From a phage, in the sequence record PZ738962.1: a DNA stretch of 64,000 bases; one strand, given 5' to 3'. Of this stretch, positions 1 through 8,520 are shown in pieces. The position numbers and the translations under genes were made by a program. Below the pieces are notes generated by a model that did not search any database, was not told the origin of the DNA, and worked only from the letters and a program-made list of their open reading frames with translations. How positions within the stretch are numbered: position 1 is the stretch's first letter; each line of letters begins with the position of its first letter.

Positions 1-40
1 TCAAGAGTCTGGCATTAAACTATATCATAAGGGTGCGCTA

Positions 41-1810
41 ATGATTGAACAATTAAACATCCACGAGATCCCACATGTTGACGGTGTACCAAGCGAAGGA
101 CAGCACCGTATTAACTGGATCAAGAATGGCGAATGTTTAAGCGCAGCAACGACACAGACTGGCAATGACGGGACGCTTAACCGCGCCCCGGTTGCAATTC
201 AAGAAAACGTTGCACGCGTAAACGAAAACGCAAAATCAACCGTCGCTAAAGTTAACGAGGTTGTAACGGCGGTTAACGATATTAAAACAACTTTAGGGGT
301 AATTTCTGACGGAAGTATCATTGATGTGGTTAACCAGACTGTCGCAAAAGTTGAATCCGTCGAAGATAACTTAGGAGAAACAGCAAGAACTCTACAAACA
401 ACGGTAGACGCTGTATCAGAACTTAACATCAAGATTGGTGATCGCCCCGCTGCCGATCCTAGCACAAGAACAATCTATGATGACATTTCTTTCATCAAAC
501 AAGAAATGGGTTCTTATCCTAACTTTAATATCAATGGTTCCCCTGATGCTGGCAGTTCCGGTTCTGGCATCAAATACCGAGTTATTCAGAATACCGCAGC
601 ATTAAATGACCACGGTCGCCGAATCATTCAGCTTGAAAACGACTGGCAAGATTCTGACGTAGGCGAGTTAACAAAACAAGTTAACAAAATGCGCAGTGAG
701 ATCGGCGACACGTCTCTTGCAACACAAGAAAATGTGTATGTTCGTCTCCGCACCAACGCAAGAAACATTGCTAACTTATCAAACGAAGTTCTAGAAGTCA
801 AGAAAGCAATTTTGTTTGATTCAATCCCTGATATCGGGACTAAAGTCACTACGCTGGAAACTAATTATGAACGTCTAAACAATGATGTTAATGGTGTAGA
901 TTCCGGTATTCGTCCTCGTCTTCTGGCTGTCGAGAATAAGATCGGAACGCCTCAATCGGCTGGAAGCATTGATTATCGATTAACCAACACAGAGCGAGAA
1001 TTTTTAGATCTTAAACAGGTTGTTGGTGTAAGCGGTGCTGACGGTTTGCGCGGTGAAGTTGTTCGACTTTCCAATGAGATTGGCACTGACAGCGATCGAC
1101 ATACTCTAGCCGGACGTATTAAAGTTGTAGAAAACACTCAGGGTCGGTTAGAAGCAAGCGTACAGGACATGGAACAGATTGTAGGTGATCGCGAATCAGG
1201 TTTGACCGCTGGCGTTATTAAACTATCAAGTGATATCTATGGCGATGATGGTTCAGAAGATCCATTTACTCAGAAAGGCGTGATTAAAATCGTCAAAGAG
1301 CTACAAACATCTAACGGAAACAAAGTAGATGATGTACCTGATGACGGTTTCCATTATCTGCGTAAGCGCGGAGAATGGGTGCAAGTTGCATATGCTGCTG
1401 GAGCATTTAAAAATACCGCAGATATTACGGTTGAACTGGACGAACAGGATGTTTATAAACCGATTCCGCTTAACGACATGGCGGAAGAAGTTAATGCGCG
1501 TCAAATGGTGAAAAGTGAATCTGTTATTACCGTTCAGGACAAAGGTTTATTCCGTTGTGTATTCCGTTGTGCTGTACAAGCTCAACATAATGCAACATTC
1601 ATTGTTGCGATTTTCAAAAATGGACAGATGATACATGAAGCGAAAAATGGTCATTACGGCACAGACGAATTGATCAGCTATTCTACCAGTGCTTTCCTAA
1701 ATATTGAAAAGGGCGATCAGATTAACATCCGTATTAAGGGTGTATCTGCCGAAGCAGTAGCACAGCCAGTACAAATTAAAGAGTTCCTCTTTGGGATTTC
1801 TCCGGTATAA
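41..1810 (+). CDS. wac: fibritin (whisker/neck fibre) with foldon-like motif and extra C-terminal domain
   Basis: 589 aa; N-terminus ...PHVDGVPSEGQHRINWIKNGE resembles T4 Wac N-terminus (recalled); foldon-like GFHYLRKRGEWV; about 140 aa follow the foldon; position upstream of gene 13. Confidence 0.7.
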   Translation: MIEQLNIHEIPHVDGVPSEGQHRINWIKNGECLSAATTQTGNDGTLNRAPVAIQENVARVNENAKSTVAKVNEVVTAVNDIKTTLGVISDGSIIDVVNQTVAKVESVEDNLGETARTLQTTVDAVSELNIKIGDRPAADPSTRTIYDDISFIKQEMGSYPNFNINGSPDAGSSGSGIKYRVIQNTAALNDHGRRIIQLENDWQDSDVGELTKQVNKMRSEIGDTSLATQENVYVRLRTNARNIANLSNEVLEVKKAILFDSIPDIGTKVTTLETNYERLNNDVNGVDSGIRPRLLAVENKIGTPQSAGSIDYRLTNTEREFLDLKQVVGVSGADGLRGEVVRLSNEIGTDSDRHTLAGRIKVVENTQGRLEASVQDMEQIVGDRESGLTAGVIKLSSDIYGDDGSEDPFTQKGVIKIVKELQTSNGNKVDDVPDDGFHYLRKRGEWVQVAYAAGAFKNTADITVELDEQDVYKPIPLNDMAEEVNARQMVKSESVITVQDKGLFRCVFRCAVQAQHNATFIVAIFKNGQMIHEAKNGHYGTDELISYSTSAFLNIEKGDQINIRIKGVSAEAVAQPVQIKEFLFGISPV

Positions 1811-1816
1811 GAAATT

Positions 1817-1840
1817 AAAGGGGCGTTAAGCCCCTTTTTC
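1817..1840 (+). terminator. GC hairpin (ggggc-gttaa-gcccc) plus T-run downstream of wac
   Basis: stem-loop followed by TTTTT read directly. Confidence 0.5.
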
Positions 1841-1856
1841 GTTTATAGGTGATATT

Positions 1857-2789
1857 ATGTCAGGATATGTAACCAATAACCCAAGAGAATTAAAAGACGC
1901 TATTCTGCGTCGTTTAGGCGCACCAGTAATTAACGTAGAAGTAACAGAAGACCAGATTTACGATTGTATTCAGAGAGCATTAGAACTCTATGGGGAATAT
2001 CATTTCGATGGTGTGAATAAAGGATATAAAGTATTTCGTGTTAGTGCAGAGCAAGCTCAACACGGGGTATTTGATTTGAGCGATTCTGGAGTATTCGCAG
2101 TAACTAAAATAATTCGAACAAACGTAGGTAGCGCGGCTACGATGGATGGTACTGCCGTTTATCCGTGGTTTACCGACTTTCTGTTGGGTTTAGCTGGTGT
2201 AAATGGCGGTTTAGGATCTGGCTGTAGTAAATTTTATGGTCCAAATGCAATGGGTGGTGATCTAGGATATTTCGAACAGCTTATGAGCTATCGAGCCACT
2301 ATGCAAAATATGCTTAATCCTCTTCCCGATTACTGGTATAACAGCGCAAACGGACAACTTAAGATTACAGGAAACTTCCGAGAAGGTGATCTCATTGTTG
2401 TTGAATTATATGTTAAAAGCTATGTAGACGTTCCTGATATGATCGGCGCGGTTGCTGGTTATGCTCATGCTGGAGGATGTTCTACCGCTGGCGGGATTAG
2501 CGCCGTTTATGATAATCCAACTGCTGGTTTAAGCGGGATTGTTGCTGGCATGGGACCAATCAGTGAGAACAAACAGGGCGCATATAATAACCGTTGGGTG
2601 AAAGATATGGCTACCGCCTTCACTAAGGAGGTTTGGGGGTCCATCATGGCTAAACATCAAGGTCTGCAATTACCCGGTGGTGTCACTGTTGATGGTATCC
2701 GAATCATTGAAGAAGCACGCGCCGACATTGAGAAATTGCGACAAGAACTAGAATTATTAGATCCTCCGTTCGGCATCCTCATGATTTGA
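1857..2789 (+). CDS. 13: neck protein gp13
   Basis: 310 aa; MSGY...[44 protein letters not shown] and C-terminal LLDPPFGIL match recalled T4 gp13. Confidence 0.85.
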
Positions 2790-2825
2790 TTTATTGGGGG
2801 ACTATTCCCCCATTTGGAGTAACAT

Positions 2826-3566
2826 ATGTTTAACAACACTCTTTTTGCTCGCCTTGAATCGCAAAAGGATTATGAGAATACACGACAAACAGAGATTCTC
2901 AATCCTTATGTTAACTTTCACAAATATACAAATACTCAGACGTTAGCCGACGTTATGGTCGCCGAAGCTATTCAGATGCGAGGTGTAGAATTATATTACA
3001 TCCCTCGTGAATTTGTCAAACCAGATATGATCTTTGGTGAGGATGTTCAAAGCAAATTTACTAAAGCATGGAAATTTGCGGCTTATATTAACTCATTTGA
3101 TGGGTATGAAGGAGCGGGTAATTTCTTCTCTAGTTTCGGGTATCAAGCTAATGATGAATTAACTTTTACGGTTAACCCCAACCTATTCAAGCATCAAGTA
3201 GATGATCAAGAGCCAAAATCAGGTGACTTAATTTATATTCCAATGAGTAATGATTTATTTGAAATTAATTACGTTGAGCCATATCAGCCGTTTTTTCAGG
3301 CTGGCAAAAATGCCATGCGTAAAATTATTGCAGAGAAATTCGTGTATAGCGGTGAGGAATTGCGACCAGAATTACAACGCAATGAGGGAATTAATGTTGA
3401 TGAGTTTGCGGATCTGGATCTTGCACCGATCACTAATCTGGACGGGTTAACAGATATCAACCTAGATCAGTACAAAGAAGATAAGCAATTCAGAAGCGAA
3501 GGACAAGATTTTATTGATCCGTTTGATCCTATTAATGGCAAGGGTTCACCTTTCGCCGATTTTTGA
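2826..3566 (+). CDS. 14: neck protein gp14
   Basis: 246 aa; synteny after gene 13; N-terminus LFARLE...NPYVN resembles T4 gp14. Confidence 0.7.
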
Positions 3567-3606
3567 TAAATACTTGTATTGATATAATATAAGGATCTAA
3601 TGACTT

Positions 3607-4362
3607 ATGAAAAACTATTATCTATACGAAATAAAGAACAATATAAATGGTAAGATATATGTTGGCATTCGTGGGTATGATGGTGACATAAGTCAAGATC
3701 CTTATATGGGTAGTGGATTGACTCTTAAGAGGTCTATTAAAAAGAACGGGATAGAAAACTTCACAAAAACAATTCTCAAAACGTTTGACTCATGGAAAGA
3801 GGCAAGGAAAGCAGAAAGAGAAATAGTTACAGAGGAATTTGTAAAAAGAGAAGATACCTATAATGTTTCGGTTGGTGGACAAGGTGGAAATACTCACGCT
3901 GGGATGAGCGAAGAACGAAGAAAACTTGCAAGCGAAAGACACGCAGAAGCAAACCGAAATAGAGTATGGAAGCAAGAATCTAGAGATAAGGTTAGCGCAA
4001 GATTCAAAGGTCATAAGCTATCACAGAAGCAGATAGACGCGCTAAAGAAGGCAAACACAGGAAGAAAGTTCACAGAAGAACACAAGTTCAAAATAGGTAA
4101 AACGTGGCGAGGAAAGAAACGACCAGATATAGGAGAGAAGGTTGCGGCAAAATTAACAGGGAGAAAACTACCCCCAGAACATGTGGCAGCAATAACGCAA
4201 AATACACCGAGAGGAAAACAACACTTTAGGGCAAAAAGATTCTTCATCGACGATATGGAATTTTATATTTTGAGTGACGCAGCTAAAATGTTTGGTATAA
4301 GTTATAAAACGGTTAAAGCTAGACTTCTCTCAGATAAGTTTCCTACATGGAGATATGAATAA
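3607..4362 (+). CDS. GIY-YIG homing endonuclease (Seg-like), free-standing between genes 14 and 15
   Basis: 251 aa; N-terminal YLYEIKNNINGKIYVGIRG (GIY...YIG-like); internal KFTEEHKFKIGKTWRGKKRP / KLTGRKLPPEHVAAIT repeat motifs; C-terminal helix-turn-helix-like tail; no T4 gene at this position. Confidence 0.65.
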   Translation: MKNYYLYEIKNNINGKIYVGIRGYDGDISQDPYMGSGLTLKRSIKKNGIENFTKTILKTFDSWKEARKAEREIVTEEFVKREDTYNVSVGGQGGNTHAGMSEERRKLASERHAEANRNRVWKQESRDKVSARFKGHKLSQKQIDALKKANTGRKFTEEHKFKIGKTWRGKKRPDIGEKVAAKLTGRKLPPEHVAAITQNTPRGKQHFRAKRFFIDDMEFYILSDAAKMFGISYKTVKARLLSDKFPTWRYE

Positions 4363-5196
4363 ATGTTTTCACATTTTTACAATTCGTCAATTAGACGGTA
4401 TATTGTATTGCTGGGTAATTTATTCTCCGGTGTACAAATTAAAAGGGTGCGTAGCGACGGTGAGCGTTTTATTAAAGTTCCTATCACCTACGCAAAGAAA
4501 GAAAAATTCATGATGAGTCTGGACAAATATAACAATATCTCAAGTGAGGAAGACGTAGCAAAGGTAGAAACTATTTTACCGCGTATGTGTCTTTCTTTGA
4601 TTGATATGACATACGCCCAGAACTTTAAAACCAATATTGCAAATAAGACAGTACCAAAATATACGGCTGATGGAATCAGGAGCGTAACACAATATAATCC
4701 TGTACCATATAAGTTTACTTTCGAGTTAGGGATTTATACGCGTAACGAAGATGATATGTTTCAAATAATTGAACAGATTCTTCCTTACTTCCAGCCTCAT
4801 TTTAACTGTAAGATTAAAGAACTACACGGTAATGATGTATGGATTGATCGAGATATTCAGGTCACAATTAGTTCTATTACTCCAGATGAACAGGTAGGCG
4901 AAGATAAGTTTTCTCGTCGTCGTCTTGAGTGGACCATTATGTTCGAATTTATCGGGTTTATATATCCTCCAGCTACCGACGTTAAGGGGGAAATCAGAAC
5001 GATTTATCTTGATTTTCATGCCAATTCTCGTGAATTGAATCCTAGCGGTAATTTTGAATCAGTGGATCACGAGGTCGTTAAACGTGACGTCGAGCAAGAA
5101 GATTGGGACGGAACTATCAAAGAATCATATTCTAGTGATATTCCAATACCAGTTGCACCGACTCCACCGGGTCCACGTATTGTAAGAGAATTTTAA
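4363..5196 (+). CDS. 15: tail sheath stabiliser / tail completion protein gp15
   Basis: 277 aa; MF.HFYNSS.RRY...VPITYAKKE.FMM...VAKVETILPR and DMFQIIEQILPYFQPHFN match recalled T4 gp15. Confidence 0.85.
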   Translation: MFSHFYNSSIRRYIVLLGNLFSGVQIKRVRSDGERFIKVPITYAKKEKFMMSLDKYNNISSEEDVAKVETILPRMCLSLIDMTYAQNFKTNIANKTVPKYTADGIRSVTQYNPVPYKFTFELGIYTRNEDDMFQIIEQILPYFQPHFNCKIKELHGNDVWIDRDIQVTISSITPDEQVGEDKFSRRRLEWTIMFEFIGFIYPPATDVKGEIRTIYLDFHANSRELNPSGNFESVDHEVVKRDVEQEDWDGTIKESYSSDIPIPVAPTPPGPRIVREF

Positions 5197-5209
5197 GAGG
5201 TATTTTATT

Positions 5210-8520
<3,311 letters not shown>

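Follow-up and report, generated by a model that had tools for sequence, protein, structure and literature searches.

The intronless homing of T4 SegA, SegB, SegC, SegE, SegF and SegG provides the mechanistic precedent for free-standing homing endonuclease genes (HEGs) of the GIY-YIG family; several of the T4 Seg proteins are proven nucleases, and the free-standing enzymes of T4 usually cleave hundreds of base pairs away from their own genes (Edgell et al. 2010, PMC2988022). For the phages of the RB49/JSE group (Krischvirus), a published tally gives JSE one seg-like GIY-YIG HEG and RB49 no such gene (Petrov et al. 2010, PMC2993671, Table 5). We have described here a gene of this kind in a 64,000-nucleotide stretch of a Krischvirus genome (the window; sequence record PZ738962.1). 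It is a known and already annotated selfish gene, 100% identical to JSE EpJSE_00154 ('homing endonuclease'), and literature searches returned no paper on the activity of the 251-residue product, no biochemical or genetic data, and no cleavage or homing assay. What is new in the present analysis is the exact structure of the allele, the recoded N-terminus of gp15, and the contrast in sequence diversity between the gene and its surroundings, and we do not expect these to surprise a specialist.

The gene and its protein

The open reading frame occupies 3607..4362 on the plus strand, stop codon included, and runs from an ATG to a TAA to encode 251 residues. It is intergenic and oriented as its neighbours are, with gene 14 to its left (2826..3566, plus strand; neck or head-closure protein, PF11649 E = 6.8e-102, PHROG 679, annotated as gp14 in RB49 and JSE) and gene 15 to its right (4363..5196, plus strand; tail sheath stabiliser, PF16724 E = 2.2e-97, PHROG 227). 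The gap from gene 14 is 40 nt, and at the other end the TAA is joined directly to the gene 15 ATG (TAAATG), which bears out the statement in the first-pass annotation, made from the letters alone, that the gene sits tightly between the two. That annotation was also correct that T4 has no gene here, as the T4 genome has a 41-nt spacer, free of annotated features, from the end of gene 14 at 95325 to the start of gene 15 at 95367. The coordinates are exact, the same 756-nt CDS being called in the GenBank annotations of JSE, TB34, SAP, FL20, MIZ4, AV108 and G2494, and the product is identical throughout to those of JSE, TB34, SAP, FL20, AV108 and G2494. The frame is intact and full-length in every carrier, and its G+C content is not distinct from that of the flanks. 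The 251-residue ORF is a real gene; the initial observation is confirmed, and the interpretation placed upon it is supported.

The N-terminal 95 residues (3607..3891, plus strand) constitute a GIY-YIG nuclease domain, as indicated by a sub-threshold PF19835 match, identity with the T4 Seg proteins, hhalign, Foldseek, and a pLDDT above 90 in the structural model. The motif YLYEI...KIYVGIRG, read at the outset as the GIY...YIG signature, does align with the corresponding I-TevI segment 'IYQIKNTLNNKVYVGSAK', and the two boxes (Y-L-Y7 ... I-Y18-V-G20, against I-Y6 ... V-Y17-V-G19 in I-TevI) have the spacing of ~10–11 residues seen in the GIY-YIG superfamily. In hmmsearch, hhalign and BLASTP alignments Y7 of the GIY box and Y18-V-G20 of the YIG box correspond to I-TevI Y6 and Y17-V-G19, and in the hhalign and BLASTP alignments N86 corresponds to N90, Y85-N86 being aligned with Y89-N90. 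Residues Y7, Y18, G20, E70 and N86, all present here, are invariant in a family alignment of 33 homologues. E70 is the putative counterpart of I-TevI Glu75, in a register that varies by a few residues between alignments (E70, E72 or E76). The hhalign alignment has a gap opposite I-TevI residues 24–32, such that the helix with Arg27 and His31 is absent and an Arg27 equivalent is not placeable; the candidates are Arg22, which is subclade-specific, Arg42 or Lys46. This ambiguity is common to the whole Seg-type subfamily, the T4 Seg proteins included. Arg22 stands where the T4 Seg proteins have a conserved His, and the Arg variant is common to the Seg-like HEGs found at the gene 13/14 junction of other Krischviruses; because these are independent and intact genes of related phages, we regard Arg22 as a trait of the subclade rather than a sign of decay.

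The profile matches to this domain differ in strength. PF19835 (SegE_GIY-YIG) matches residues 5–79 with E = 7.8e-4 and a score of 20.1 bits, below its cutoff of 25 bits, and PF01541 is not among the matches. One or other of PF01541 and PF19835 is found in homologues of the protein, and the Pfam GIY-YIG cutoff is a classification threshold, not a biological feature. PHROG 314 ('homing endonuclease') matches with E = 1.3e-46, and TIGR01453 ('group I intron endonuclease') with E = 3.7e-10 and a score of 40.2 against a cutoff of 56.05. Profile and fold evidence taken together favours the assignment, with the DNA-binding profile PF20987 above its cutoff and PHROG 314 strong; the Pfam GIY-YIG and NUMOD3 matches, taken by themselves, fall below threshold. 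Pairwise BLASTP with the Seg proteins of the T4 record, in which similarity covers the N-terminal ~95–140 residues, gives 45% identity over 118 residues for SegB (E = 5e-27), 42% for SegC (E = 1e-26), 41% for SegD (E = 4e-26), 45% for SegE (E = 1e-19) and 34% for SegA (E = 2e-15), with weak similarity only to SegF and none of significance to SegG.

The relationship with I-TevI is supported by hhalign, in which a 33-sequence profile matches I-TevI with 93% probability. A single-sequence phmmer search of the PDB gave no match at E ≤ 1, and the 33-homologue profile recovered I-TevI only, through its GIY-YIG motif (E = 0.085), so that a comparison of folds was needed to settle the point. An AlphaFold2 model has a mean pLDDT of 82, rising above 90 in both terminal domains, residues 1–95 included. 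In a Foldseek search of the PDB it matches the I-TevI catalytic domain (1MK0, 1LN0) with probability 1.0, TM(target) of 0.65–0.67 and rmsd of 3.3–4.2 Å, and the catalytic and DNA-binding domains of I-TevI are the sole convincing matches, those from rank 5 onward having E ≥ 1 and probability ≤ 0.07.

Beyond the nuclease domain, five or six basic repeats resembling NUMOD3 form a linker (residues ~98–199; 3898..4203, plus strand), in which units of ~17 residues follow a G-[RHK]-K-x-[ST/P] register recognised by eye. These are the internal repeated basic motifs noted on first inspection, and PF07460 (NUMOD3) matches one stretch of them, residues 152–173, below its cutoff (E = 2.8e-3, 18.0 bits against 20.4). 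The AlphaFold2 model predicts five periodic helices in the linker, at 102–118, 123–133, 140–150, 157–169 and 175–183. The tail of the protein, described initially as helix-turn-helix-like, is an I-TevI-type helix-turn-helix (HTH) DNA-binding domain (residues 203–250; 4213..4356, plus strand) that matches PF20987 (I-TevI_DNA-bd) above its cutoff (E = 1.4e-7, 31.7 bits against 27), aligns with I-TevI residues ~205–242 in BLASTP, and matches the solved structure 1I3J in Foldseek with probability 0.99. The linker lacks a zinc finger, the sequence being free of Cys throughout, and some homologues have a CxxC...HxxxC tail instead of the HTH. The protein is an I-TevI-like modular build of GIY-YIG domain, NUMOD3-like linker and C-terminal HTH.

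Occupied and empty alleles

Comparison and alignment of eight occupied and 11 empty junctions define the occupied allele as a block of 806 nt (3575..4380, plus strand) that stands in place of 36 nt, CATAAACAAGGGGGTCAAATGTTCGGTTGGCACTAT, in HEG-less relatives, where the junction reads ...GATAAATACT / CATAAACAAGGGGGTCAAATGTTCGGTTGGCACTAT / AATTCG.... The block is composed of a 32-nt leader (3575..3606, plus strand, by direct reading of the sequence), the 756-nt ORF, and the first six codons of gene 15 (4363..4380, plus strand) in recoded form, ATGTTTTCACATTTTTAC (MFSHFY) as against ATGTTCGGTTGGCACTAT (MFGWHY) in the empty allele. HEG-less junctions exist, in keeping with the designation of the gene as a mobile insertion. 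One refinement is needed: rather than a simple insertion there is an exchange of 36 bp for 806 bp, with recoding of the start of gene 15. MFGWHY is present in every empty allele examined, diverged ones included, and T4 has MFGYFY. We considered the diverged empty alleles of 011D4, ELT4, phiS, PHB13 and an IMG/VR contig as potential immune variants and rejected them, as their changes are synonymous only and all encode MFGWHY. Exact-match scans of IMG/VR and JGI metagenomes with the recoded gene 15 start (ATGTTTTCACATTTTTACAATTCG) gave no match, and thus neither a 'recoded but HEG-less' allele nor a donor lineage was found in them.

The gene is present in nine of 58 related GenBank records, namely JSE (two records), TB34, SAP, G2494, FL20, AV108, MIZ4 and MIZ5. 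In a census with a 116-nt probe that spans the RB49 junction, the junction is broken in the same nine records that tblastn identified, and the uninterrupted 14/15 junctions of the other 49 Krischvirus records are the empty sites that a mobile gene would be expected to leave among its relatives. The carriers share at least 99.6% amino acid identity, and all other tblastn matches in the phage collection are below 60%. In public assemblies, 66 indexed blocks contain the exact protein, and all ten of the places listed have gp14 on one side of it and gp15 on the other; a gp15 scan of IMG/VR yielded three loci, all of them empty. The gene is carried by a minority of RB49/JSE-like coliphages and appears to have spread among them recently.

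Among the GenBank carriers the block differs at 0–2 of 806 nt, with differences at up to 49 of 760 nt in gene 14 and at 27–35 of 1350 nt in the gene 15–16 flank. Across 18 carriers, ten of which were retrieved through exact protein identity, such that non-synonymous diversity in the block is biased downward and synonymous sites are free to vary, pi is 0.0013 in the block compared with 0.024 in the left and 0.018 in the right flank, and there are five segregating sites in the block compared with 75 to its left and 19 to its right. Block diversity is thus 13- to 18-fold below that of the flanks, synonymous sites included. The flanks of the carriers are mosaic, and those of the window are closest to the HEG-less FL37 (5 + 3 differences), with the carrier JSE far more distant (49 + 27). 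Neither vertical inheritance nor purifying selection at the protein level would give such a pattern of low block diversity on mosaic backgrounds, and one young allele at one site on several diverged mosaic backgrounds fits what recent homing would predict. Preferential inheritance in mixed infections would accord with these population data, which bear on it indirectly.

The block contains the sole positions that differ consistently between eight carriers and 15 non-carriers, and the 740 nt on its left and 1340 nt on its right contain no fixed differences between these two groups. Co-conversion tracts, sought as HEG-linked SNPs in the flanks, were not found, and polymorphisms common to both classes begin within 16–20 nt of the block edges (at 3555 and 4396).

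Putative expression signals, proposed homing and alternative readings

The leader contains an extended -10-like sequence, TGATATAAT (3580..3588), followed by AAGGA (3591..3595), which resembles a Shine-Dalgarno sequence and lies 11 nt before the ATG. A promoter scan scores no better than a 9/12 sigma-70 match at the leader, the matches upstream of the gene being weak, and we regard the leader as a putative promoter. The T4 late-promoter consensus TATAAATA does not occur in positions 1..8515 of the window. The RNA that covers the ribosome-binding site and start codon folds into no more structure than expected by chance (z = -0.07), which lends no support to translational sequestration of the I-TevI style. 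At the distal end of the gene, direct reading of the last HEG codons reveals a GGAG (4349..4352, plus strand) 10 nt upstream of the gene 15 ATG, and this is likely to be the gene 15 ribosome-binding site, replacing the GGGGG of the empty allele. We also note a perfect sigma-70 consensus (TTGACA, 18-nt spacer, TATAAT; 12/12) antisense within gene 14, at 2990..3019 on the minus strand.

We think it likely that the ORF is a free-standing homing endonuclease of the T4 Seg (SegA–E) branch of the GIY-YIG family, with an I-TevI-like architecture, and that it moves by intronless homing. By analogy with the characterised T4 enzymes, a HEG-carrying and a HEG-less Krischvirus would co-infect one cell, the C-terminal HTH and the NUMOD3 repeats would bind the HEG-less genome at or near the 14/15 junction, and the tethered GIY-YIG domain would make a double-strand break. 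Recombination-dependent phage repair would then copy the 806-bp block from the carrier, converting the empty allele. The element is arranged in such a way that the essential gene 15 is spared, with a likely substitute ribosome-binding site, the abutting TAAATG, and a functional gp15 N-terminus kept.

Immunity of the carrier genomes is probable, since the block takes the place of the 36 bp that cover the intergenic region and codons 1–6 of gene 15, and the recoded gene 15 start is a candidate for target-site immunity. Since carriers must avoid cutting themselves and the swapped 36 bp constitute the sole difference between the alleles, the recognition site most likely overlaps the intergenic region and the start of gene 15, which would be unusual for a Seg enzyme. 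However, the cuts of T4 free-standing HEGs are usually distant (PMC2988022), such that the enzyme may have a target beyond the swapped 36 bp, and either a more distant target or tolerated self-cleavage may apply. It is quite possible, if short of probable, that the endonuclease cuts at its own insertion site, in the ribosome-binding site and start of gene 15, with MFSHFY as the immunity determinant, unlike the T4 Seg enzymes. Cutting at this position would explain the lack of gene-linked markers in the flanks. If true, it would provide a tidy natural system for the study of target choice by a free-standing HEG and of its recoding of an essential structural gene at the start, and it would fit a wider hot spot for nuclease and intein insertions in the neck–terminase module of Krischvirus.

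Three rival readings were considered. The gene could be an inactive or domesticated relic that no longer cleaves, kept only because without it the essential gene 15 would lose its ribosome-binding site and start context, and spread by ordinary recombination and hitch-hiking. Gene 15 does draw both its GGAG and its TAAATG junction from the 3' end of the ORF, embedded signals favouring HEG retention are known in T4 (PMC2988022), and the protein has both an Arg22 in place of the T4 Seg His and the unplaceable Arg27 equivalent. Nonetheless we consider a relic unlikely, because the ORF is full-length in all carriers with the family-invariant catalytic Tyr, Tyr, Glu and Asn intact, and the Arg variant is also found in the independent and intact 13/14-junction HEGs. 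The 13- to 18-fold deficit of diversity in the block, which extends to synonymous sites, likewise argues for recent transfer into several backgrounds and not for slow decay. Alternatively, the nuclease could serve mainly as a weapon or a tool of genome remodelling, through marker exclusion of co-infecting relatives or through local recombination or amplification, its own propagation being incidental. Localised marker exclusion is a known effect of Seg enzymes (PMC2988022), SegB is reported to promote amplification of anti-defence loci (PMC13096335), and several independent HEG and intein insertions are present in the Krischvirus neck–terminase module. Yet nothing separates this proposal from plain homing, with which it is not mutually exclusive, and the absence of HEG-linked flanking markers gives no sign of extended marker exclusion around the site; we judge it quite improbable as the main role.

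The G2494 record labels the gene a 'group I intron endonuclease', which would make it intron-encoded, and for this there is the weak TIGR01453 match (E = 3.7e-10) and the overall similarity to I-TevI. However, with a score of 40.2 the TIGR01453 match falls short of its cutoff, an Rfam search of 2800..5300 gave no intron match at E ≤ 1, genes 14 and 15 are complete and separate ORFs, and the junction in the empty allele is an ordinary spacer between genes. With no split host gene and no intron RNA we reject this reading as exceedingly unlikely and regard the G2494 label as wrong. The lack of an Rfam intron, and the location between two complete genes, also uphold the first-pass description of the gene as free-standing.

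Returning to the preferred interpretation of a Seg-like enzyme that moves by intronless homing, the significance beyond correct annotation is small, and the locus is one more case of intronless homing shaping the genomes of T4-like phages. Nevertheless, an 806-bp occupied and a 36-bp empty allele, in natural carriers and non-carriers that are ~99% identical in their flanks, offer a ready-made experimental system for mapping the target of a Seg-like enzyme. The block also bears on phage-therapy genomics, in which many Krischvirus isolates are candidates, as it explains one recurrent presence/absence difference between otherwise near-identical phages.

Neighbouring insertions and known systems

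Other insertions are found in the same region of these genomes. Three different Seg-like HEGs, of 271, 311 and 194 residues, occupy the 13/14 junction in various Krischviruses, lying at 1649..2464 in the extracted loci of MIZ4 (L009) and Makalu_001 (L014), at 1573..2508 in that of E26 (L019) and at 220..804 in that of phiS (L023); positions 2790..2825 of the window are the empty equivalent of this site. The gene for gp17, the terminase large subunit (5704..8520 in the window), encodes 938 residues instead of 607 as a consequence of an insertion at 6196..7188. This adds 331 residues in-frame and splits the Walker A motif (SRQLGK|T), starting with ALDVNTP (Ala1) and ending with IPTHN followed by Thr, and it matches LAGLIDADG_3 with E = 2e-5. 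It is an intein with a homing-endonuclease core and, by its motifs H-I-W, VKCIQV and T-H-N, looks like a class 3 'WCT' intein. Of 64 related records, 12 have the intein (AV108, MIZ4/5, FL15, FL04, ELT3, kvi, ECD7, PTE-Eco09 and Makalu_002/003 among them), and it is absent from JSE, RB49 and FL37. In the annotations of TB34, SAP, kaaroe and JK32 gp17 is represented by two overlapping CDS (1752 + 1380 nt), which points to an insertion in the terminase gene other than the intein of the window. Together, the 13/14-junction HEGs and the gp17 insertions mark the neck–terminase module as a hot spot for nuclease genes.

Two further observations concern the virion genes near the locus. In G2494 gene 15 has a 55-nt insertion near window position 4688 that divides gp15 into two annotated CDS, which could reflect an error of sequencing or assembly, or else a genuine break in an essential gene. 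The fibritin (wac) ORF of the window (41..1810) has Fibritin_C at residues 368–451 followed by ~130 residues with weak BclA_C and C1q-like matches (E = 0.01–0.14), and the sequence suggests an extra C-terminal globular domain.

The closest described counterparts of the gene are EpJSE_00154 of JSE (YP_002922226.1) and the corresponding genes of TB34, SAP, FL20, AV108 and G2494, which share 100% amino acid identity with it and the same 806-nt block at the same position; the gene of MIZ4/5, at 99.6% amino acid identity, has the block and the 14/15 position in common as well. There is no difference from JSE at the level of the gene, but the genome of the window is a different mosaic, with flanks nearest to FL37, TB34 and SAP, and it contains the gp17 intein that JSE is without. 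The closest full-length relatives in the phage collection are the Seg-like HEGs at the Krischvirus 13/14 junction (311 residues in E26; 271 in MIZ4, Makalu_001 and PHB13; 194 in phiS), with 32–42% identity and E down to 4e-41. These have the 'VG[VIM]R' variant in common with the window protein and lie at an adjacent intergenic site within the same virion-gene module, although they are other genes at another junction, and are absent from the window.

The resemblance to T4 SegA–E consists of a nuclease domain that is 34–45% identical, with the Y-M-G-S-G and ...NF.K.IL... motifs in common, and of free-standing, intergenic genes that are co-oriented with their neighbours and sporadically distributed. 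The insertion site differs, as there is nothing between T4 genes 14 and 15, and the window protein has Arg22 for the Seg His, a loop two residues longer, a longer NUMOD3 linker and a clear I-TevI-type HTH, its activity being putative. Moreover, allele-specific sequence is found here solely at the insertion site, whereas T4 Seg enzymes usually cut hundreds of base pairs away (PMC2988022). With I-TevI, the endonuclease of the T4 td intron, the protein shares the GIY-YIG domain, the extended linker and the C-terminal HTH, with 23% identity in an end-to-end BLASTP alignment, and its predicted fold matches both solved I-TevI domains. It differs in that the gene is not intron-encoded, the linker is without the zinc finger that is the distance determinant of I-TevI, and the helix with Arg27 and His31 is absent from the alignment.
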